IMG/VR virus record: IMGVR_UViG_2695420430_000010
Strand: one strand, 5' to 3'
Source: a virus
Lineage: Duplodnaviria > Heunggongvirae > Uroviricota > Caudoviricetes
DNA length: 7,859 nucleotides
Below the pieces are notes generated by a model. That model did not search any database, had not been told where the DNA came from, and was given only the letters and a program-made list of their open reading frames with translations. The translations under genes were made by a program, and so were the position numbers. Positions 1 to 7,859 of the stretch are shown here, piece after piece; position 1 is the stretch's first letter, and each line of letters begins with the position of its first letter.

Positions 1-45
1 CGCCCGCTGACGGACTTCGGGGGAAAAACGAGTATTTTTAGTCAT
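1..45 (-). CDS. IS3-family transposase OrfA, first 15 codons only (partial, runs off the window)
   Basis: Minus-strand ATG at 45..43 translates to MTKNTRFSPEVRQRA; an AGGTAAACAGG-type Shine-Dalgarno region lies just upstream on the minus strand (plus coordinates about 50-60). Confidence 0.65.
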   Translation of the reverse strand, partial: MTKNTRFSPEVRQRA

Positions 46-99
46 CCTGTTTACCTCTTTCTCAGGGAGTTTAGTCTCCAGGATTTCCGGGGCGGTTCA
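1..99 (-). mobile_element. Terminal fragment of an IS3-family insertion sequence (IS629/IS1203-like): inverted-repeat end plus start of orfA; the element continues beyond the window start
   Basis: Reverse complement of 1..99 begins TGAACCGCCCCGG (typical IS3-family TG... terminus), followed about 55 nt later by an ATG opening MTKNTRFSPEVRQRA, which matches my recollection of the IS629-group OrfA N-terminus. Exact IS identity is unverified (needs ISfinder). Confidence 0.7.
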
Positions 100-101
100 G
101 C

Positions 102-728
102 ATGGAAAATAACCAAAGACACCCAAATTTTCCATCAAAGACACCCAAAAACGGATCACGGAACCCAAAGGAACCCAAAGTTCTAAACCCCACACATAAC
201 GCACGCGAGAGTGCTCTGACCAGTGAGCAGGAAGTTTTGTCGTTACAGGCAGTATTCCTGGATGGCCTGAGAGAACCCATCGGAAAATTTCTGATGACCG
301 ATAGCTGGCATCCGTCGCGGGATTTTCGACGACGGGCTGCGTTGTGGGGGATGGCTTTGCCGGAGCCGGAATTTACACCTGCTGAACTTGCCGCATTCCG
401 GGATTACTGGAGTGATGAGGGGAAAGTGTTTACGCAGATTCAGTGGGAGCAGAAATTCGCCCGTCACGTAAATCACGTCAGGGCGCAGGTTAAACCAGTC
501 AGCAAGGGGGTGAACCATGCAGCAGCACCAGGGGGCACCGCATCACGGGCAGTTCAGGAAATTCGGGCAGCACGTGAGCAGTGGGAACGTGAAAACGGAT
601 TTATCCGCGACGGAAACGGCGTGGAAGCTGTGGGAACTCATGGGGGAGGTTTATTCGAACCGCTGGACCCAGAAGAACGGGGCCGCACCTTCGAAGCTCT
701 GGATTGCACAGATTGGTGCGATGACTGA
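102..728 (+). CDS. Phage replication protein with DnaT-like C-terminal domain (occupies the lambda O position); probably 5'-truncated by the IS insertion
   Basis: Residues about 60-150 (nt about 279-551: GKFLMTDSWHPSRDFRRRAALWGMALPEPEFTPAELAAFRDYWSDEGKVFTQIQWEQKFARH) closely resemble the C-terminal region of E. coli primosomal protein DnaT as I recall it. The reading frame is open from the IS boundary (75..101), so the ATG at 102 is likely an internal Met. A P-like gene follows, as in lambda O-P. Confidence 0.6.
   Translation: MENNQRHPNFPSKTPKNGSRNPKEPKVLNPTHNARESALTSEQEVLSLQAVFLDGLREPIGKFLMTDSWHPSRDFRRRAALWGMALPEPEFTPAELAAFRDYWSDEGKVFTQIQWEQKFARHVNHVRAQVKPVSKGVNHAAAPGGTASRAVQEIRAAREQWERENGFIRDGNGVEAVGTHGGGLFEPLDPEERGRTFEALDCTDWCDD
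113..196. repeat. Iteron-like direct repeats with an ACCCAAA core (candidate remnant of a phage replication origin inside the O-like gene)
   Basis: CAAAGACACCCAAA at 114-127 and 136-149 (22-bp period); GAACCCAAAG tandem at 161-170 and 171-180; related AAACCCCACACA at about 185-196. In lambda the ori iterons lie within the O coding sequence at the interdomain linker. Confidence 0.45.
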
Positions 729-1182
729 GCAGCAAATCCGACAGGTCTGCCGCCAGTGCATGGACCGCTGCCGGGAGGGTGAAACATGGCCTCCGGACCT
801 GGCTGAGTTTGTGGCACTGATTTCGGAAAGCGGAGCCAATCCATTCGGTCTGACGGTGGATGCTGTGATGGAGGAGTACCGCCGCTGGCGCAATGAGTCC
901 TGGCGATACGACGGAAGTGATAAGTACCCGTGGTCTCAGCCTGTGCTGTATCACATTTGCCTCGAGATGCGTTCAAAGGGGGTTGAGCGCCAGATGACCG
1001 AAGGGGAATTAAAACGGCTTGCAGAACGGCAGCTGACGAAATGGGCAAAGCATGTTAGTAACGGCCTGAGCGTTCCGCCAGTCCGGCGACAACTGGCGGC
1101 ACCCAAACGCCCGTCGGGGCCAACGCCAATTGAGTTGCTGAAACAGGAATATGAACGCCGGAAAGCGGCTGGGCTTGTTTGA
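517..1182 (+). CDS. Lambda-P-like replication protein (DnaB helicase loader)
   Basis: 221-aa ORF. Strong SD (AAGGGGG at 504-510) six nt before ATG 517, which is the first codon after an in-frame TGA (511-513). Segments AMTEQQIRQVCRQ, YPWSQPVLYHICLEM and MTEGELKRLAERQLTKWAKHVSNG align in order with recalled lambda P segments (TTMEQVNAGMRVARRQ, YPWKSNAHYWLVTNL, LTDAELRRKAADELVHMTARINRG). An alternative start at ATG 721 (ATGACTGA overlap with the upstream stop) cannot be excluded. Confidence 0.7.
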   Translation: MQQHQGAPHHGQFRKFGQHVSSGNVKTDLSATETAWKLWELMGEVYSNRWTQKNGAAPSKLWIAQIGAMTEQQIRQVCRQCMDRCREGETWPPDLAEFVALISESGANPFGLTVDAVMEEYRRWRNESWRYDGSDKYPWSQPVLYHICLEMRSKGVERQMTEGELKRLAERQLTKWAKHVSNGLSVPPVRRQLAAPKRPSGPTPIELLKQEYERRKAAGLV

Positions 1183-1214: not shown

Positions 1215-1489
1215 ATGGAGACTGTTTTTGACGCACTGAAAGCAATGGGAAAAGCCACATCCATAGAACTTGCTGCGCGCGTGAAGAAGTGCTGAACGAA
1301 CTATGGGAACTGAAAAAGGCTGGTTTTGTTGATAAAAGCGCGTACACCTGGCGTGTGGCTGATAACAACGTTCAGCAGGAACAGCCAGCGCAGGCAGAAC
1401 TGCCGGAAGAAACCACCACAATGAGTGAAGTTATGCAGCGCATACTGGCATTTTATCAGGGAAATGTTCGATATTTTAGACGTTACTAG
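1215..1489 (+). pseudogene. Small ren-like gene interrupted by a -1 frameshift near 1281-1283
   Basis: ATG 1215 with an excellent SD (GGGAGG at 1203-1208) opens [26 protein letters not shown] then stops at 1293-1295. The -1 frame is open from 1232 and continues [25 protein letters not shown]... to the stop ending at 1489. The joined product (about 91 aa) loosely resembles lambda Ren (…ARAGLLVIEGKVWRT…) and sits where ren lies in lambda, immediately after P. Confidence 0.45.
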
Positions 1490-1861
1490 ATTAAAGAGCA
1501 TTAGTTCAGATGTGAATTGACATTGTGTGGCACAGGGTTGGGCTAGCGTGGGGGTTTGCTTTGTGTAAGAAACGGATGCTCTGCAAATTACTACTAATGC
1601 TTAATGTTAGTCTGATCTGCTCCCCGATGATTAATACACCGCTATGTTAGTAATGTCTGTAGATCGCTGTGTGTTGCATCCATCGGTTGACCCCACAGTC
1701 CAAACCAGACTGTCAGCTTTGATTCGATTCTATCTACTCAACCTGTCAGGTAATGTCTGAGCTAATACACAGAGTACGGCTATCGCGAACTTTAAGCTAG
1801 GTATCTGATACGCACCGTTCACTTGTTTGTACTTCTTGCACTGACTAGCTATCGTGCGCAG

Positions 1862-1890
1862 TTATTTATAGGTAATCTCCAGTGTATAAT
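1862..1890 (+). promoter_or_regulatory. Candidate sigma70 promoter with extended -10 (TGTATAAT) for the 281-aa gene
   Basis: TGTATAAT at 1883-1890; weak -35 TTATTT at 1862-1867 with 17-nt spacer; the start codon lies about 35 nt downstream, preceded by SD CAGGAGG (1917-1923). Confidence 0.35.
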
Positions 1891-1928
1891 TTTCCAACTT
1901 ATGGGAGATTGTAAAACAGGAGGAATAT

Positions 1929-2774
1929 ATGAGGAAAAAATCGTTTGGACGTTGCCCGTTTGATTTCGACGAAGATGTAAAAAAAATAGCCGCGATAAAT
2001 AAATATATCCATGCGAAATTTGAGAGGCATAAAAATAAAATAGATAACCTAAAGGGGGTGGAACAAAAATTGATGGTTTTACATTACTTTAATGTACTGA
2101 ATGAACTTAGTAATCAGGCTATATTTTCTTTGAGTACCGGAGCCTTTTCAGCATCGGAAGTATTAACTAGAGTTATAATGGAACAGGCTGCCAATCAATT
2201 TTATATAGCAATTGATGATGGAAAAAATGCACAAGCATTACTCAAGGGTAGTAAGAAATTAGTTCATAGTAATGGGAAACGGTGGCTGGAGTGTTTAAAA
2301 TCCAAAGAAATGACTAATCCAGCAGCAGATGAAAGGATTCGTATCGGAAAAGAGCTAACTGATATGTTTAATAGATTGTGGCCAAATACACCTGAATATC
2401 CTGGAACCAAAAAGCTTTTCGAAGTAATTGGCTGGGAAACACACTATCATGCCTATTACGTCCCTCTTTGTGATTCAATACATACATTCTCTGATGATAT
2501 GGCAAATATAGTATCTCTATATAATGCAATCCAAAGCGATAAAACTACTGCTATCGAACTCACTCTTGCAGTTAAACAAGAAAATAAACGGCTGGCAATT
2601 TATAATGTCGTAATTGCTATTGGCCTGCGGTGTGAGGCCTTAGTAAATGTATTTAACTCTTTAGGTTATCGAGATATTATAACTGAAATGGCGCCAACAA
2701 TAGATGCAGTCAACCAGATTATAATTCGATATGATGATTTCGAACATTCCAGAATTTTTATTGTCAATAATTAA
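1929..2774 (+). CDS. Hypothetical protein, 281 aa, function unknown (AT-rich cargo gene; possible HEPN-like Rx5H motif near the C-terminus)
   Basis: Long ORF in a strongly AT-rich stretch with a near-consensus SD (AGGAGG, 5-nt spacer) and an upstream extended -10 promoter. No family recognised by eye. C-terminal IIIRYDDFEHSRIF contains an R-x5-H spacing compatible with a HEPN RNase motif (speculative). Confidence 0.75.
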   Translation: MRKKSFGRCPFDFDEDVKKIAAINKYIHAKFERHKNKIDNLKGVEQKLMVLHYFNVLNELSNQAIFSLSTGAFSASEVLTRVIMEQAANQFYIAIDDGKNAQALLKGSKKLVHSNGKRWLECLKSKEMTNPAADERIRIGKELTDMFNRLWPNTPEYPGTKKLFEVIGWETHYHAYYVPLCDSIHTFSDDMANIVSLYNAIQSDKTTAIELTLAVKQENKRLAIYNVVIAIGLRCEALVNVFNSLGYRDIITEMAPTIDAVNQIIIRYDDFEHSRIFIVNN

Positions 2775-2879
2775 TTGGCAGAATTCGTACATGCACAACA
2801 ACTAGTTATAGTTGACCTATTTCGCTCTTGAGAGACAACCATACTCAAATCTTCCACATTGCAGGAGATTTGAGTATGA

Positions 2880-3396
2880 ATACGTCACCGAGGAACAAAG
2901 ACAGTATCATAGGCCCAAAAAGACCACTTCAGATATCTCATATCTGGGGGCTCCAAATCCGGCTTGAACTGGAAGGTAAAACGCGTGATTTAGCTCGGTT
3001 TCAAGCAGAGCTACGGTGCTGCAACTGAAAAACTGGCAGTCCTATCCAATTTGAGATAACCAAAGGGACAAGAGAAGCTGTTTCTGCATTGATAAAGCTT
3101 GGCAATTTACGCAGTAAAGACTACTTGTTCCGATCTCGGGTCGGTACTAACCAACACATATCAATCCTGCAATATAACCGAATCTTTCATAGGGGGGAGA
3201 AAAGCTTGGTCTCGAAGATTCGCTTTACAGCACACATTCCATGAGAAGAACAAAACCTTGCCTTGTCTGCAAGAAAACTAAGAATCTCCGGGTGATCCAA
3301 CTTCCGTTGGGCCATAAGAAAACGGAAAGCACAGTTCGTTATCTGGGTATAGAAGTTGATGATGCATTAGAGATCTCTGAATCGATCGAAGTCTAA
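2880..3396 (+). pseudogene. Degenerate tyrosine recombinase (phage-type integrase) catalytic-domain remnant, broken by an in-frame stop and a frameshift
   Basis: One frame reads ...GPKRPLQISHIWGLQIRLELEG...(stop at 3026-3028)...KTGSPIQFEITKGTREAVSALIKLGNLRSKDYLFRSRVGTNQHISILQYNRIFHRGEKSLVSKIRFTAHIP(stop). A second frame (3193..3396) reads ...STHSMRRTKPCLVCKKTKNLRVIQLPLGHKKTESTVRYLGIEVDDALEISESIEV(stop). Together these recapitulate the integrase box I (R), LFPS-like segment, HxxR, and LLGH...Y catalytic-tyrosine motifs in the right order. Confidence 0.5.
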
Positions 3397-3808
3397 AGCT
3401 GTCAGGGCTGCAGCAGCAGCCCTGTGCCAAGAGCGTACCAATATATGTCTCAAAAAATTGGGCACAGGTCAATATCAATACCAACAACTCTGATTGTGCT
3501 CATGTGATTTACTCCTGTAGAAAACGCAGACAGTAAAAATATTTCACTGGCTGCTTCAGACAGGGCGTCCATCATATCATTACATAACAATAGCGGGGCA
3601 CGATATCTAGACATGCAGCAACGATGGACATAGAATGAGTACAATCAAAAGCATGTTTAACTACTTTAATTTAAAAATCTTAGAATCTTAGGTGTAGAGT
3701 TCAATACTTAGTTACATACCCTTTTGAAAGCATCACAAATCATAACTATGAGCCTGTTAAAGGCATAGGTATTCTTAATTAAGAGCATTTTAATGAGAGA
3801 AAAATAAA

Positions 3809-5182
3809 ATGAAAAGACTATATTATACCCATCATGATAGTCGAACCTTAAAACTTGCTATAGAAGGTGATGTTTCTGATAATGCGAATATTTTTACAGT
3901 AATTGTAGGTAAAAATGGCGTTGGAAAAAGCAGATTGTTATCTCAGATTGCTAAAGACTGTATTCAAGATGTTCATTTCTTGAAAACTTTTAATCCATTA
4001 TTTGACAGAGAAATAACACCAAAGTTAATTGCCGTATCTACCAGCCCATTCGATAAATTCCCTCCAGGGCGTAGGTCATTAAATCACCAAAGGAAAGAAA
4101 ATAATTATCGCTATGTGGGTATGCGTGGAGAAGGCCCCTTCGGCGTATCAAATGCCGTATCCCTTTTATCTTCAGCAGCGAGAGGTTGGCTAGAGAAACT
4201 TGCTTATTCAGAAAATCCTGCAAATTTACTCGATGTTTTTCATTCTATTGATTTTGAGCCCCATATAGAGTTTGTATTTAAACCAACTTACAACGGACCG
4301 GACACTCCTGACTATAACTTCATTGGTGTATATTCAGATGAGATATTAACGGAAGTTAAGGAGTTATATTTAAAATACAATATAAAAATTGACAGGAAGA
4401 ATATTGAGAGTCTCTTAAAGTTAAACTCCGAATCACGTCATGATATTTACGAAGCACTGGTTGAAATTAATCGATTTGAACCTGAACGTAGGGCTGTAAC
4501 CTTGTCAGTCGATTTTACCAATGGTGAAACATTGGTTGGCTCGACTTATGCGAATAATTATTTTTCTAGATCAATTCTTAAACTTATGAACGCTGGCTTC
4601 ATGAGATTGATGGATATGCGACTCATAAAAAAAAGCTATGGTCCCATGTCACTTAAACGTGCGAGCTCGGGAGAACAATGTTTATTAGTGATGTTGCTTG
4701 GAATTGCAGGGCATATAACTGATGGTTCTATAATATTAATTGATGAACCGGAAATAAGCTTGCATCCTCGATGGCAGGAAGAGTTTATCATTATGTTAAC
4801 AAAAGCATTTTTAACTTACTCAGGTTGTCAATTCATAATTGCAACTCATTCACCACAAATAATATCCAATTTGCCGAATAAAGGTTGTTATATAACATCT
4901 TTGTCGAAAAGTTATCTTTATAAAGCAAAATACTTTAGCAACCGGTCTGCAGACTATCAACTTGCGGAACTATTTGATGCCCCTGGCATTATGAATGAAT
5001 ACATTGCCAGGTTAGCTTTCAATTTACTTTCAAAAGTTAAGACTGCTAAGTTAGTAACAGATGATAATTGGCGTGAATTAAAACAACTCCAACTTCTCCT
5101 TGAAAACGTTAATAGTAATGACCCTATTAATGAACTCGTAAATTCCGTATCTCAGGTGTGTGAAATTTATGCCAAAAATTAA
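3809..5182 (+). CDS. ptuA: ABC/OLD-type (AAA_15/21-like) ATPase, PtuA-like component of a Septu-type defence module
   Basis: 457-aa ORF, AT-rich. Walker A GKNGVGKS (K40 codon 3926-3928); signature-like SSGEQ; Walker B IILIDEPE (D312/E313 at 4742-4747); H-loop ATHSP (His codon 4847-4849). Immediately followed by, and overlapping, an HNH nuclease gene. Confidence 0.8.
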   Translation: MKRLYYTHHDSRTLKLAIEGDVSDNANIFTVIVGKNGVGKSRLLSQIAKDCIQDVHFLKTFNPLFDREITPKLIAVSTSPFDKFPPGRRSLNHQRKENNYRYVGMRGEGPFGVSNAVSLLSSAARGWLEKLAYSENPANLLDVFHSIDFEPHIEFVFKPTYNGPDTPDYNFIGVYSDEILTEVKELYLKYNIKIDRKNIESLLKLNSESRHDIYEALVEINRFEPERRAVTLSVDFTNGETLVGSTYANNYFSRSILKLMNAGFMRLMDMRLIKKSYGPMSLKRASSGEQCLLVMLLGIAGHITDGSIILIDEPEISLHPRWQEEFIIMLTKAFLTYSGCQFIIATHSPQIISNLPNKGCYITSLSKSYLYKAKYFSNRSADYQLAELFDAPGIMNEYIARLAFNLLSKVKTAKLVTDDNWRELKQLQLLLENVNSNDPINELVNSVSQVCEIYAKN

Positions 5183-5804
5183 AAATCCAATTAGATTCAG
5201 CGCAGAGTCATTAGATATTATTGAGAAAAAATTGTCTTCTCCAGATTTTAAGCATACCAACTGGGGAGATGATGATTTGCAAGTTCTCCGTGCAGAAATT
5301 AGAAATCATTACAGAGAAGAACAAAAGCTAGAATGTGTATATTGTCATGAGCCTATTGGGGTAAGAGCTGCACAAGCTGCTCCTATAGAGCATATTGTGC
5401 CAAAATCTCAATATCTATGTTTTATTTTTGAACCTAAGAATCTATGTGTAGTATGTCCTGACTGCAATGAATTCAAAGGTAAAAATGAAGTGTTATTTGA
5501 ACCCGTAATAAATGGGGGGCGGCGCAAAAACTATCCAACTGCATCTGCATCATTTCGCATCGTTCATCCACATATAGATGATTATGAGATGCATATTATA
5601 AAAGCAAATCGTGTTTATGTGGACAAAACACCTAAAGGGCACTATACCATTGGAATATGTAAACTAAATAGATTTTTTCATTATTTTGGGATGTGTGATG
5701 AATTTGTTAATGATGCAAAAATTGCTGAGGCAAATGAAAATTTTTTCAAAAAAGGTAGTATTACTACTAATGAATTATTGGATGATGACATTCATTTGAT
5801 TTAA
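5169..5804 (+). CDS. ptuB: HNH endonuclease, PtuB-like component of a Septu-type defence module
   Basis: Motif CVYCHEPIG...IEHIVPKS...N...CPDCNEFKGKN is a classic HNH (CxxC-H...H...N...CxxC) core. The ATG at 5169 overlaps the end of the ATPase gene by 14 nt (ATPase stop at 5180-5182), implying translational coupling. The ORF track's GTG at 5160 is a less likely start. Confidence 0.8.
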   Translation: MPKIKNPIRFSAESLDIIEKKLSSPDFKHTNWGDDDLQVLRAEIRNHYREEQKLECVYCHEPIGVRAAQAAPIEHIVPKSQYLCFIFEPKNLCVVCPDCNEFKGKNEVLFEPVINGGRRKNYPTASASFRIVHPHIDDYEMHIIKANRVYVDKTPKGHYTIGICKLNRFFHYFGMCDEFVNDAKIAEANENFFKKGSITTNELLDDDIHLI

Positions 5805-5913
5805 CTATGAATTATTATATTGTAAAGTAATCAGGTAAGATATGTTAGACAGTGAGACTATTGCCTTACAGAATTCATTATTCTTATGGATCGCCTTTCT
5901 GACTGATTTCATA

Positions 5914-5942
5914 TTGGCGGGGTAACGGGAGTTAAGTAGAAT
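5914..5942 (+). promoter_or_regulatory. Candidate promoter of the hok/mok mRNA
   Basis: TTGGCG (5914-5919), 17-nt spacer, TAGAAT (5937-5942). The predicted start lies just before the 5' element (5947-5960) that is complementary to the 3' end of the transcript. Confidence 0.35.
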
Positions 5943-5946
5943 GGCT

Positions 5947-5960
5947 GCGGGTGCTTGAGG
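5947..5960 (+). promoter_or_regulatory. 5' fold-back element of hok mRNA, complementary to 3' segment 6323-6337
   Basis: GCGGGTGCTTGAGG (5947-5960) against the reverse complement of CCTCAACGCACCCGC (6323-6337), which is GCGGGTGCGTTGAGG: near-perfect long-range 5'/3' complementarity, as in the fold-back-inhibition structure of hok-family mRNAs. Confidence 0.45.
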
Positions 5961-6060
5961 CTATCTGTCTCAGGCATGAACACCAAAGGCAGATAGAGAA
6001 AAGCCCCAGTTAACATTACGCGTCCTGCAAGACGCTTAACATTAATCTGAGGCCAATTTC

Positions 6061-6273
6061 ATGCTAGACACATGTAGGTTAGCCTCTTACGTGCCGGAAG
6101 GCAAGGAGAAGCAGGCTATGAAGCAGCAAAAGGCGATGTTAATCGCCCTGATCGTCATCTGTTTAACCGTCATAGTGACGACACTGGTAACGAGGAAAGA
6201 CCTCTGCGAGGTACGAATCCGAACCGGCCAGACGGAGGTCGCTGTCTTCACAGCTTACGAACCTGAGGAGTAA
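6061..6273 (+). CDS. Mok-like reading frame (in-frame N-terminally extended form overlapping hok; regulatory)
   Basis: ATG 6061 opens a 70-codon frame that contains hok in the same frame, comparable to chromosomal mokC/hokC as I recall them. A candidate antisense promoter sits over this start region. Confidence 0.4.
   Translation: MLDTCRLASYVPEGKEKQAMKQQKAMLIALIVICLTVIVTTLVTRKDLCEVRIRTGQTEVAVFTAYEPEE
6076..6104 (-). promoter_or_regulatory. Candidate promoter for a Sok-like antisense RNA
   Basis: On the minus strand: TTGCCT (plus 6104-6099), 17-nt spacer, TAACCT (plus 6081-6076). It would transcribe leftwards across the mok start/SD region, the usual Sok target. Confidence 0.3.
6118..6273 (+). 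CDS. hokD: Hok/Gef-family type I toxin (HokD/RelF-like small membrane peptide)
   Basis: 51-aa product MKQQKAMLIALIVICLTVIVTTLVTRKDLCEVRIRTGQTEVAVFTAYEPEE matches the Hok family and specifically my recollection of HokD (RelF). SD AAGGAG at 6103-6108. rem lies downstream, as in Qin. Confidence 0.85.
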   Translation: MKQQKAMLIALIVICLTVIVTTLVTRKDLCEVRIRTGQTEVAVFTAYEPEE

Positions 6274-6342
6274 GAGACCCGGCGAGGGAGAAATCCCTCG
6301 CCACCTCTGATGTGGCAGGCATCCTCAACGCACCCGCACTTA

Positions 6343-6369
6343 ACCCGCTTCGGCGGGTTTTTGTTTTTA
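6343..6369 (+). terminator. Rho-independent terminator at the 3' end of the hok transcript
   Basis: Stem ACCCGC (6343-6348) / GCGGGT (6353-6358), loop TTCG, followed by the T-run TTTTTGTTTTT. Confidence 0.6.
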
Positions 6370-6381
6370 TTTTCAACGCGT

Positions 6382-6411
6382 TTGAAGTTCTGGACGGCGC
6401 CGGAATAGAAT
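6382..6411 (+). promoter_or_regulatory. Candidate sigma70 promoter upstream of rem
   Basis: TTGAAG (6382-6387), 18-nt spacer, TAGAAT (6406-6411), located between the hok terminator and the rem SD. Confidence 0.3.
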
Positions 6412-6489
6412 CAAAAATACTTAAGTAGCGCGCAGGGATAAGAGGGATGGTCCCTTAAAGGGGAGAGCTAATTATCCGGAAGGATTCTG

Positions 6490-6741
6490 ATGATGAACAT
6501 CGAAGAACTGCGTAAAATTTTTTGTGAAGATGGCCTCTATGCTGTGTGCGTTGAAAATGGAAATCTTGTTAGTCATTACCGCATTATGTGTTTGCGAAAG
6601 AATGGGGCTGCGTTAATTAATTTTGTGGATGGTCGAGTGACAGACGGATTTATCTTGCGCGAAGGTGAGTTTGTCACTTCATTACAGGCACTGAAAGAGA
6701 TCGGAATAAAAGCAGGCTTTTCAGCTTTTGCAGAAGAATAA
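6490..6741 (+). CDS. rem: Rem-like small prophage protein (83 aa)
   Basis: Product MMNIEELRKIFCEDGLYAVCVENGNLVSHYRIMCLRKNGAALINFVDGRVTDGFILREGEF... matches my recollection of Qin Rem. SD GGAAGGA at 6478-6484. Position after hok is as in Qin. Confidence 0.7.
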   Translation: MMNIEELRKIFCEDGLYAVCVENGNLVSHYRIMCLRKNGAALINFVDGRVTDGFILREGEFVTSLQALKEIGIKAGFSAFAEE

Positions 6742-6807
6742 ACTCATCTACAATCTTGCGCGGGGCTGAACTCCCGCTGAGTAACACCGTGCCACCGGAG
6801 AAAACCG

Positions 6808-7086
6808 ATGGCACGCAACGTAAAATATTACAATTCTGATAATTCGCCCGTTCTTGCCTGCACGCACGAGCGGTATTCTCACGCATTCAAGTCTGAATGG
6901 TTCCAACACCCTCCATGTACTGAAGAGCAGGCTGAATGGATAATTCAGTGTTACCGCAGGCGCGGATACGAGGTTAAGAAAGCCCTTAGTCTCGACTACC
7001 GTCACTGGATAATCTCCGTCAGGCTTCCTTACTCTGAACGCCCACCGCGTCCGTCTCGCACATTCCAGCAACGCATCTGGAGGTAA
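6808..7086 (+). CDS. Hypothetical prophage protein (92 aa)
   Basis: SD GGAG (6797-6800) before ATG 6808; GC-rich codon usage like neighbouring phage genes; its stop (7084-7086) lies in the SD-to-start spacer of the next gene, implying coupling. Family not recognised. Confidence 0.6.
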   Translation: MARNVKYYNSDNSPVLACTHERYSHAFKSEWFQHPPCTEEQAEWIIQCYRRRGYEVKKALSLDYRHWIISVRLPYSERPPRPSRTFQQRIWR

Positions 7087-7087
7087 C

Positions 7088-7859
7088 GTGCGGGTATTAC
7101 TTCGACCTGTTCTGGTACCGGAACTCGGGCTGGTGATCGTTAAGCCGGGCCGTGAATCCATGCCAGTATTCCACAATACCCGGGTATTGATGGAGCCGGA
7201 ACCGAAAAGCATGCGTAATCTGCCGTCCGGGGTCGTTCCTGCCGTTCGCCAGCCGCTGGAGGAAGACAAAACATTGCTGCCGTTTTTCAGTAACGCACGG
7301 GTGATTCGTGCTGCTGGTGGTGCTGGTGCATTGTCTGACTGGCTGTTGCGCCATATTAAATCCTGCCAGTGGCCACACGGCGATTATCATCACAGCGAAA
7401 CTGTCATTCACCGTTATGGTACCGGCGCAATGGTGTTGTGCTGGCACTGCGACAACCAGCTGCGTGACCAGACATCCGAATCACTCGAGCAACTTGCTCA
7501 TCAAAACCTGTCAGCATGGATGATTGACGTCATCGGTCACGCAATAAGCGGTACGCAGGAGCGTGAATTATCTTTGGCTGAATTATCCTGGTGGGCGGTC
7601 CGCAATCAGGTGGCGGACGCGCTACCGGAAGCGGTATTACGTCGTTCGCTGGGGGTGCGTGCGGAAAAAATCCGCTCAATGTACCGTGAAAGCGACATCG
7701 TGCCGGGAGAGCAGACCGCCACCAGCATACTGAAGCAGCGCACAAAAAATATTGCGTTACTGCCTGACGTCCACCAGCAACAGAACCCACCACAGGAAAA
7801 GACGGTGGTCAGCATTGCCGTTGATCCTGAGTCTCCGGAATCTTTCATGAAACGACCTA
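7088..7859 (+). CDS. YdfU-like (DUF968) prophage protein, 5' portion; continues beyond the window end
   Basis: GTG 7088 preceded by GGAGG (7079-7083). I translated this frame codon by codon from 7088 to about 7543 with no stop, and by run-on reading to 7859; it is absent from the ORF track presumably because it has no stop in the window. Opens VRVLLRPVLVPELGLVIVKPGRESMPVFHN... and contains a Cys/His cluster HIKSCQWPHGDYHH...CWHCDN. Confidence 0.7.
   Translation, partial: MRVLLRPVLVPELGLVIVKPGRESMPVFHNTRVLMEPEPKSMRNLPSGVVPAVRQPLEEDKTLLPFFSNARVIRAAGGAGALSDWLLRHIKSCQWPHGDYHHSETVIHRYGTGAMVLCWHCDNQLRDQTSESLEQLAHQNLSAWMIDVIGHAISGTQERELSLAELSWWAVRNQVADALPEAVLRRSLGVRAEKIRSMYRESDIVPGEQTATSILKQRTKNIALLPDVHQQQNPPQEKTVVSIAVDPESPESFMKRP

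Follow-up and report, generated by a model that had tools for sequence, protein, structure and literature searches.

The 7,859-nt stretch of DNA analysed here (the window), from the virus record IMGVR_UViG_2695420430_000010 of IMG/VR, covers part of a Qin-like lambdoid prophage of Escherichia coli and an AT-rich island within it. Judged by homology, the segment at ~1578–5875 is accessory cargo, acquired horizontally, in a variable slot of the prophage. We consider it likely that this cargo comprises two cassettes joined at copies of a 24-bp palindromic site, namely Module A, with a DUF5677 gene and a dead gene for a short tyrosine recombinase, and Module B, with a type I Septu anti-phage system. 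The island itself is an ordinary case of a known defence system (Septu) borne by a prophage in a variable slot, and it changes no concept; it is of use for annotation, being carried by 19 complete genomes, enteropathogenic E. coli (EPEC) E2348/69 among them. What deserves follow-up is the link between the small recombinase and a P2-type inverted repeat across several classes of mobile element.

Two cassettes in a variable prophage slot

Two-breakpoint likelihood segmentation placed compositional breaks at ~1450 and ~5890, with a GC content of 0.366 between them and 0.522 beyond them; the fit gained 95.7 nats over one uniform composition. Sliding GC fell from 0.51–0.59 in the first 1.3 kb (0.54–0.58 for the left backbone at 1–1182) to 0.28–0.45 at ~1800–5900, and was 0.45–0.57 beyond. 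At third codon positions, GC was 0.27, 0.28, and 0.21 for DUF5677, PtuA, and PtuB versus 0.61, 0.51, and 0.57 for the backbone genes encoding P, the DnaT-like protein, and DUF968. An initial annotation, made from the letters alone, had described an AT-rich stretch between GC-rich flanks that holds an intact unknown gene, a broken recombinase gene, and a Septu-like ATPase/HNH pair, and both the compositional contrast and the gene content were borne out. Low GC alone is no proof of foreign origin, because the backbone gene rem is also AT-rich (GC 0.40).

Homology placed the foreign DNA from ~1578, just 3′ of the remnant of a Ren-like gene (DUF977), to 5875–5876, just 5′ of hok/sok. On the left, DUF1627 homology to three related prophages stops at 1419, with a 13-bp deletion near 1280 in the alignment. 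The following DNA (1423–1577) is ~85% identical to the 3′ end of DUF977 and the sequence just downstream of it in ~2900 E. coli genomes, and backbone homology extends to 1576–1577. On the right, related phage contigs resume at 5877–5884, just upstream of the sok RNA, and the foreign DNA runs ~70 bp past the ptuB stop. The bounds first proposed, 1490–5810, located the island correctly and missed both of its exact ends. Its placement at the ren/nin-equivalent position of a lambdoid prophage holds, with DUF977 upstream and hokD downstream, and the wording is a fair description because DUF977 is the Ren-like gene of this prophage lineage (PHROG 'Ren-like exclusion protein' match to its last residues). 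Attachment-site direct repeats, which the initial annotation had suggested seeking at the boundaries, were not found flanking the island; the left-hand junctions carry the palindromic 24-bp site, and the right junction shows only ATYGCCTT microhomology between cassette end and backbone.

Because DUF1627 homology stops at 1419 and DUF977-like DNA runs from 1423 to 1577, the open reading frame (ORF) ending at 1489 is a DUF1627::DUF977 deletion fusion. The arrival of the island was not a clean insertion, since the backbone also lost DNA in this fusion. The deletion, of ~1 kb, leaves the N-terminal part of DUF1627 joined to only the final ~20 codons of the Ren-like gene, and with the 13-bp deletion in addition, the prophage has lost both genes.

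The island (at least 80% of its length, always at 99.5–100% identity) was found in 19 of 5426 complete E. coli genomes, whereas its flanks occur in thousands. Slot contents were gathered one locus at a time, and related prophages carried QueH with a Kiwa system, an alpha/beta hydrolase, a fimbrial pseudogene with the Paa adhesin, or four small unknown genes; K-12 Qin carries relB-relE, ydfV, and flxA. The slot that follows the Ren-like gene in Qin-like prophages thus behaves as a cargo hotspot (Septu, Kiwa, relBE, adhesin, and others), as the first reading of the position as a site of accessory cargo had it, and the presence of other genes there in related prophages agrees with its view of the island as inserted rather than ancestral. 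In a limited literature search, no description of the ren-hok slot of Qin-like prophages as a hotspot was found. Pfam, PADLOC, and PHROG profile searches identified no phage life-cycle gene within the island, again in line with that reading. The K-12 Qin relBE-hokD locus has the same backbone (dicA/dicC ... hokD-rem-ydfU-Q) and likewise holds accessory genes immediately upstream of hokD, but it carries relBE, ydfV, and flxA and has lost the replication genes, whereas the window carries Septu and the DUF5677 cassette.

According to its homologies, the island is made of two independent and apparently separately acquired cassettes lying side by side, A then B. It is not one element, because both cassettes occur apart elsewhere and their boundaries meet at 3438/3446. 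Window positions 1612–3360 are ~89% identical to a cassette of DUF5677 and a small tyrosine recombinase in P2-like prophages, and ~1600 E. coli genomes contain DNA matching the Module A part of the island at 80–95% identity. In S88 and IHE3034, a Module A-like cassette sits in a P2-like prophage, flanked by the genes for tail-fibre assembly and for the tail sheath. In P2 this position is the Z/fun hotspot; that hotspot and the window share Module A itself. Positions 2822–3438 also match a stand-alone recombinase in a genomic island. Module B, in its exact extent (3446–5875) and with ~360 bp of its own upstream DNA, is 89% identical to part of a chromosomal defence island (L033), where its neighbours are a helicase/VspR on one side and Mrr on the other, and positions 3602–5817 match, at 85% identity, sequence located at the end of a Klebsiella variicola prophage (L031). 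The Septu cassette has 35% GC in both of these hosts, and a 66%-identical Pseudomonas relative also lies well below its flanks; overall, the cassettes hold ~35–40% GC across hosts and elements of quite different composition. Because the Septu cassette is AT-rich in every host examined, AT-richness is a property of the cassette and no pointer to a donor.

The P2 old/tin and Z/fun and P4 psu-int loci are prophage-encoded defence hotspots (Rousset et al., 2022, PMC9122126; PMC13586616). The slot resembles them in its fixed position within a conserved prophage and in AT-rich defence or accessory cassettes that differ per isolate and are exchanged with other mobile elements; it differs in its host, a Qin-like lambdoid prophage, and in its location, which is between the Ren-like gene and hok/sok.

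A 24-bp palindromic site and a short recombinase

The palindromic core has the left-type consensus GTCCGCTY-TGTGCCAG-RAGCGGAC (full 24-mer, GTCCGCTYTGTGCCAGRAGCGGAC), that is, 8-bp arms around an 8-nt centre, and can be drawn as a stem-loop; the right-type site is inverted, with the centre TGAGCGAR. A scan of the window for 24-mers with at most six mismatches gave exactly two matches, 1554–1577 and 3415–3438, both on the plus strand and both ending at a module junction, and only 1 of 300 composition-preserving block shuffles yielded even one such match. Backbone homology ends at the 3′ end of the left site (1577). The second is a hybrid site with six mismatches to the consensus in the trailer of the recombinase gene; Module A ends there, and the Septu cassette begins at 3446. 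At the same place as the left site, the related phage contigs L048, L087, and L141 have intact left-type sites. These results suggest that the junctions at the 24-bp site reflect site-specific cassette insertion.

Around inserts in the P2 Z region, this element already carries the annotations 'left inverted repeat' and 'right inverted repeat' (GenBank AJ512676–AJ512683; Nilsson, Karlsson & Haggard-Ljungquist, 2004, Mol Biol Evol 21:1), so that the cargo junctions of the window coincide with the palindromic repeat that bounds P2 Z/fun inserts. As in those inserts, the repeat stands at the left cargo edge with its 3′ end at the homology break; unlike them, the window has a degenerate left copy, no right repeat, and a second, hybrid copy after the recombinase gene. 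A separate candidate, CAACCCTGTGCCA (1528–1540, minus strand) with CAGCCCTGTGCCA (3417–3429), was considered as the terminal inverted repeat of a transposon-like unit. It was dropped: the copy at 1528 proved to belong to the left-repeat element, as its upstream stem, and a single copy within 8 kb is all that other recombinase loci have.

The tyrosine-recombinase gene of the window has no intact reading frame. Compared with the intact genes of the S88 P2-like prophage (194 aa) and the FDAARGOS_536 genomic island (200 aa), the window gene lacks 82 bp after ~3000 and shows further frameshifts as well as an internal stop, and RefSeq labels it 'frameshifted; internal stop'. Intact homologues range from 194 to 203 aa and hold the HSxRR and LLGH...RY motifs. 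Pfam detected only Phage_integrase in an intact homologue (PF00589, 5.3e-19, residues 35–184 of 200) and, in intact homologues, no N-terminal DNA-binding domain of the classical integrase kind before the catalytic domain. Classical phage and ICE integrases measure ~320–450 aa and have an arm-binding domain, a SAM-like core-binding domain, or both ahead of the catalytic one. The best 120 database relatives are 170–256 aa long, most of them ~200, and 76–96% identical; the listed relatives come from Gammaproteobacteria, including Escherichia, Providencia, Proteus, Pantoea, Idiomarina, and Pseudoalteromonas. Because the family is uniformly ~200 aa and catalytic-domain-only, the gene is a dead copy of a naturally short recombinase and not the stump of a classical integrase, which revises the initial annotation, where it was taken for the decayed integrase of an integrative element.

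The recombinase gene was found in a hotspot next to traF-traH-traG of SXT/R391-like integrative and conjugative elements (ICEs), in tmRNA-site genomic islands, and in E. coli islands, and its neighbour genes differ on one or both sides in each context. ICEs, genomic islands, and a lambdoid contig have it without DUF5677, and it is truncated in IHE3034, where DUF5677 is intact. A perfect 13-bp inverted repeat that ends on the recombinase start codon is kept across contexts; the Providencia copies (L013/L016, ~7960–8003) show two compensatory double changes, C-G to A-T and C-G to T-A. Either a hairpin acting in translation or a palindrome for protein binding could explain this repeat.

After the recombinase stop codon comes a trailer, a GC hairpin followed by TGCCA..AGCGGAC, that is common to ICE, genomic-island, and phage contexts, and homology between recombinase contexts breaks right after it. 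Every copy of the gene examined, from five kinds of element, has the hybrid site within ~45 bp of its stop codon. A covariance model of the site, built from seven trailers, detected further copies, all on the same strand and at module edges. In detail, one copy follows the full-length integrase of Providencia islands, where 6.5 kb of cargo and the short recombinase lie between two copies (E 2e-4, 6e-3); two more are in the FDAARGOS_536 island (E 2e-4, 6e-3); one is at the left edge of an arsenic-resistance block in ICE loci (E 0.05–0.11); and weak matches (E ~0.5) fall at the left edges of two cassettes, that with DUF5677 in P2-like prophages and that with Septu in L033. Viral contigs, scanned for an exact 16-mer, gave 122 sites, with a conserved left arm in 87 and, at 59, an inverted right-type site 0.46–4 kb downstream. 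Cargo lies between a left and a right site in S88 and in related Qin-like contigs, and such a pair encloses ydfV-flxA in K-12 Qin; the right-type site is present in L048, L087, L141, S88, and the P2-EC records.

Individual loci gave the following arrangements. In the Qin prophage of K-12 MG1655 (L028), a left-type site (4982–5005, two mismatches) and an inverted right-type site (5973–5996, five mismatches) surround ydfV-flxA next to relBE-hokD, and the bracketed segment is oriented opposite to the window cargo. Three SXT/R391-like ICE loci have a right-type site just upstream of traF (L009, 9762; L012, 10424; L008, 9762); the variable region between the short recombinase and this site holds mer genes, dfrA, or integron parts depending on the contig, and on the other side the arsenic-resistance block starts at a left-type half-site. 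In L141, an IMG/VR lambdoid contig with the same slot, positions 1875–7926 comprise a left site, an intact short recombinase (96% identical), the trailer site, 3.2 kb of cargo that includes a second recombinase-like fragment, a right-type site, and hok. L141 is a natural variant of the window arrangement, as it has no DUF5677.

Integron cassettes and the Xer-dependent dif modules of Acinetobacter plasmids are short cargo units with small palindromic recombination sites, mostly without a recombinase of their own, on a fixed platform. The cassettes described here are similar in being short cargo, for the most part without a recombinase, bounded by small palindromic sites at a fixed platform. They differ in their recombinase, which is a ~200-aa catalytic-domain-only protein of predicted activity rather than IntI (~320 aa) or XerC/D, and in their sites, which are 8-8-8 palindromes unrelated in sequence to attC or dif; from attC they are set apart by description.

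Arrival of the cassettes

We favour the explanation that cargo was joined at copies of the 24-bp site. Cargo would have docked at the left-type site that follows the Ren-like gene, and on at least one occasion the short recombinase would have come along; the left-hand junctions at 1577 and 3438 both coincide with site 3′ ends. The candidate enzyme for docking is the short recombinase, whose gene always has the hybrid site just past its stop codon. The right junction may have been made by a later non-specific event (microhomology or illegitimate recombination) that removed the right-hand repeat, and decay of the recombinase and of the left site would then have frozen the arrangement. The island is taken to be fixed in place because the recombinase is a pseudogene and the left site is degenerate.

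The broader proposal, that the recombinase and the left and right sites form a widespread integron-like docking system through which defence genes and other cargo enter fixed hotspots in mobile elements unrelated to each other, is put forward tentatively, as a possibility that we would rate somewhat below even. If it is true, the hotspots would comprise P2 Z/fun, the ren-hok slot of Qin-like phages, the traF-adjacent hotspot of SXT/R391-like ICEs, and tmRNA-site islands, and the window would be the fossil of two successive docking events. The link between the repeat and the very conserved mini-recombinase offers a testable mechanism for the movement of defence cassettes between unrelated phages, ICEs, and islands.

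Several observations weigh against docking by the recombinase. The left site of the window departs from the consensus at 6 of 24 positions, and a search for the right-type site on either strand, allowing up to nine mismatches, returned only the two left-type sites. The short recombinase is encoded at only 1 of 120 site-bearing viral loci and is absent from the neighbourhoods of the Septu cassette in L033 and L031. Among the relatives of the Septu cassette, only L033 has a site-like 24-mer, with five mismatches and 17 nt upstream of the start of homology. The link between recombinase and site is one of association.

A chief competitor is that cassettes were swapped by ordinary homologous recombination at short conserved boundary sequences, with the palindromes as terminator-like elements or linkers and the recombinase as a mere passenger. 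We regard this too as possible, with a chance of roughly one in three. Many viral contigs have left/right pairs around 0.5–4 kb segments, yet the recombinase is at only one of the 120 loci; the 24-bp sites are stem-loops that could act at the RNA level; and the right junction of the window is plain microhomology. Exchange of this kind accounts less readily for the architecture of the site and for where homology stops. Two inverted 8-bp arms around an 8-bp centre are the architecture of a tyrosine-recombinase core site, loxP, FRT, and dif being such core sites with inverted arms around a centre. Moreover, a hybrid site lies near the stop of every recombinase copy examined in the five kinds of element, with homology ending exactly there, and homology breaks at the site edge rather than being scattered around it. 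That all 4.3 kb came in as a single integrative element carrying an integrase that later decayed, as the initial annotation had suggested, appears very unlikely, although the AT-rich block contains a recombinase pseudogene and the island genes are all co-oriented: each half occurs elsewhere without the other and their boundaries meet at 3438/3446, the 120 best recombinase relatives are all short and catalytic-domain-only, no att-type flanking direct repeats were found, and the recombinase sits mid-block rather than at an end.

The AT-richness of the backbone gene rem could speak for the AT-rich genes being ancestral nin-region genes of the phage lineage rather than acquired. This is hardly credible for a block present in only 19 of 5426 genomes with flanks in thousands, in a slot that holds unrelated genes in related prophages, and with cassettes that keep their ~35–40% GC in hosts and elements of differing composition. 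DUF5677 and the short recombinase might also form one functional two-gene system, for defence or as a recombinase-controlled switch, that was inactivated in the window. The two genes are co-linear, DNA matching the module is frequent in E. coli with the pair itself in P2-like prophages, and a study in Bacillota selected DUF5677 as a defence candidate associated with recombinases (PMC12632615). Such a system is unlikely, however, as the recombinase is found without DUF5677 in ICEs, genomic islands, and a lambdoid contig; DUF5677 is intact where the recombinase is truncated (IHE3034) or broken (window); the nearest non-E. coli relative of DUF5677 has no recombinase neighbour; and the DUF5677 gene tested in Enterococcus was not among the active candidates.

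Septu, DUF5677, and the surrounding backbone

Septu type I is an anti-phage system reportedly described by Doron and colleagues in 2018, and the EcSeptu structure is said to be that of the PDB 8ee4 series. Module B is, on the evidence of its predicted proteins, a complete standalone type I Septu system. As in that type, an ATPase gene and an HNH nuclease gene form an operon on a mobile element, overlap (by 14 nt, on the same strand), match the PADLOC profiles over their full length, and keep all motifs. PtuA, which is as long as its relatives, matches AAA_21 (2.3e-20) and AAA_15 (1.4e-16) in Pfam, and its translation contains Walker A (GKNGVGKS), signature (SSGEQ), Walker B (ILIDEPE), and H-loop (ATHSP) motifs; the PtuB translation shows the Cys/His HNH motif. 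The system is standalone type I and not type II because no reverse transcriptase or retron RNA is attached: no ORF of at least 60 aa was found in 3397–3808 apart from one of 64 aa on the minus strand, and no Rfam family, retrons included, was found between 3400 and 5900.

According to the part of PMC12640716 that cites Li et al. (2024), PtuA and PtuB of characterised Septu systems form a 6:2 complex whose nuclease is inhibited by ATP and nicks or cleaves DNA once activated. We infer the same mode of action for the window pair: the ABC-type ATPase PtuA would oligomerise and hold the HNH nuclease PtuB in an ATP-inhibited complex, and phage infection would free the nuclease activity and so protect the lysogen against other phages. 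Defence by this pair is predicted from homology, and some results count against it. The window PtuA is of a distant subfamily (PDLC00283), unlike the PtuA of the solved EcSeptu, and aligns with it (8ee4) at E 3e-7 over only ~50 residues in phmmer. Promoter-like sites upstream of ptuA and DUF5677 were no more frequent than in shuffled sequence, and expression of the island genes in the lysogen is therefore assumed; a terminator scan likewise gave nothing above the shuffled expectation.

The closest Septu proteins, 85–90% identical, come from Klebsiella and an enterobacterial contig, and the best species-representative relative of the cassette is the Pseudomonas one (66% identical). No phage record carries the cassette, and the sole full-length match in a plasmid search was a record of 8.5 kb that is entered as a plasmid and belongs to one of the same E. 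coli genomes. The phage, plasmid, and species-representative matches named no donor, the cassette being AT-rich everywhere. Within the upstream DNA of the cassette, ~115 bp in 3470–3590 are 79–91% identical to mostly unannotated spots on many enterobacterial plasmids, mostly conjugative, of Serratia, Citrobacter, Klebsiella, and E. coli. In a Serratia IncI1 plasmid, the similar stretch overlaps the start of a small minus-strand gene pair. It could be a promoter/leader or a toxin-antitoxin remnant.

DUF5677 proteins form a small family, with 54 representatives at E ≤ 1e-3 in a set of 1.8 billion proteins, and are absent from the PADLOC profiles. An AlphaFold2 model of the window protein is entirely helical, with a pLDDT of 93.5.

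The features of the window are listed in Table 1. By annotation, the prophage has integrase, exonuclease, dicB, repressor and Cro-like (cI/cro-like) genes, YdaT, and the DnaT-like O before P, and continues with P, DUF1627, DUF977 (Ren-like), the slot, hokD, rem, the 92-aa ORF, DUF968 (ydfU), RusA, Q, the lysis genes, and terminase. The right flank of the slot is a hok/sok type I toxin-antitoxin locus, in which the Hok toxin ORF is overlapped by the sok antisense RNA.

Table 1. Positions of the features in the 7,859-nt window and the evidence for each.
Feature	Position	Strand	Evidence
Backbone, 3′ part of DnaT-like replication (O-type) gene	1–728	+	Pfam DnaT 3.5e-17; RefSeq of identical locus
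Backbone, replication protein P	721–1182	+	Pfam Phage_lambda_P 7.3e-17; RefSeq of identical locus
Pseudogene, DUF1627 N-terminus fused to C-terminal tail of DUF977/Ren-like gene	1215–1489	+	Alignment with three prophages; PHROG
Degenerate 'left inverted repeat' copy; core 24-mer at 1554–1577, GTTTGCTTTGTGTAAGAAACGGAT	1523–1577	+	6 mismatches to GTCCGCTYTGTGCCAGRAGCGGAC
Module A, DUF5677 + short tyrosine-recombinase cassette	1612–3438	+	Homology
DUF5677 gene, intact, 281 aa	1929–2774	+	Pfam DUF5677
Perfect 13-bp inverted repeat, 13-nt spacer, ending on recombinase start codon	2840–2878	+	Conserved across contexts
Pseudogene of ~200-aa catalytic-domain-only tyrosine recombinase	2877–3396	+	Alignment with intact S88 and FDAARGOS_536 genes
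Recombinase trailer, GC hairpin CAGGGCTGC/GCAGCCCTG overlapping hybrid 24-bp site; core at 3415–3438, AGCAGCCCTGTGCCAAGAGCGTAC	3403–3438	+	Covariance model, 55.9 bits
Module B, predicted Septu cassette with own upstream DNA	3446–5875	+	Homology
ptuA, ABC-type ATPase, intact, 457 aa	3809–5182	+	PADLOC PtuA PDLC00283 1.2e-165, residues 2–455
ptuB, HNH nuclease, intact, 211 aa	5169–5804	+	PADLOC PtuB PDLC00325 1.1e-83; Pfam HNH 4.6e-5; RefSeq start
Backbone resumes after island	5877–7859	+	Homology with related phages from 5877–5884
sok RNA	5949–6123		Rfam sok, 117 bits versus gathering score 59
hokD	6118–6273	+	Pfam HOK_GEF 1.3e-23
rem	6490–6741	+	RefSeq annotation
92-aa ORF	6808–7086	+	RefSeq annotation
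DUF968/ydfU, start only	7088–	+	RefSeq annotation

Just after hokD, a weak Rfam match to isrK at 6282–6363 (25.7 bits versus a gathering score of 50, E 0.022), which is probably not significant, overlaps a terminator-like hairpin at 6342–6359. At the other end of the window, the listed E. coli matches begin at position 100 at the earliest, except for one genome identical from position 1 and seven O103/O121-type genomes that match from position 1 at ~91% identity over 43% of the window. This suggests a putative mosaic breakpoint within the DnaT-like replication gene (window 1–99).

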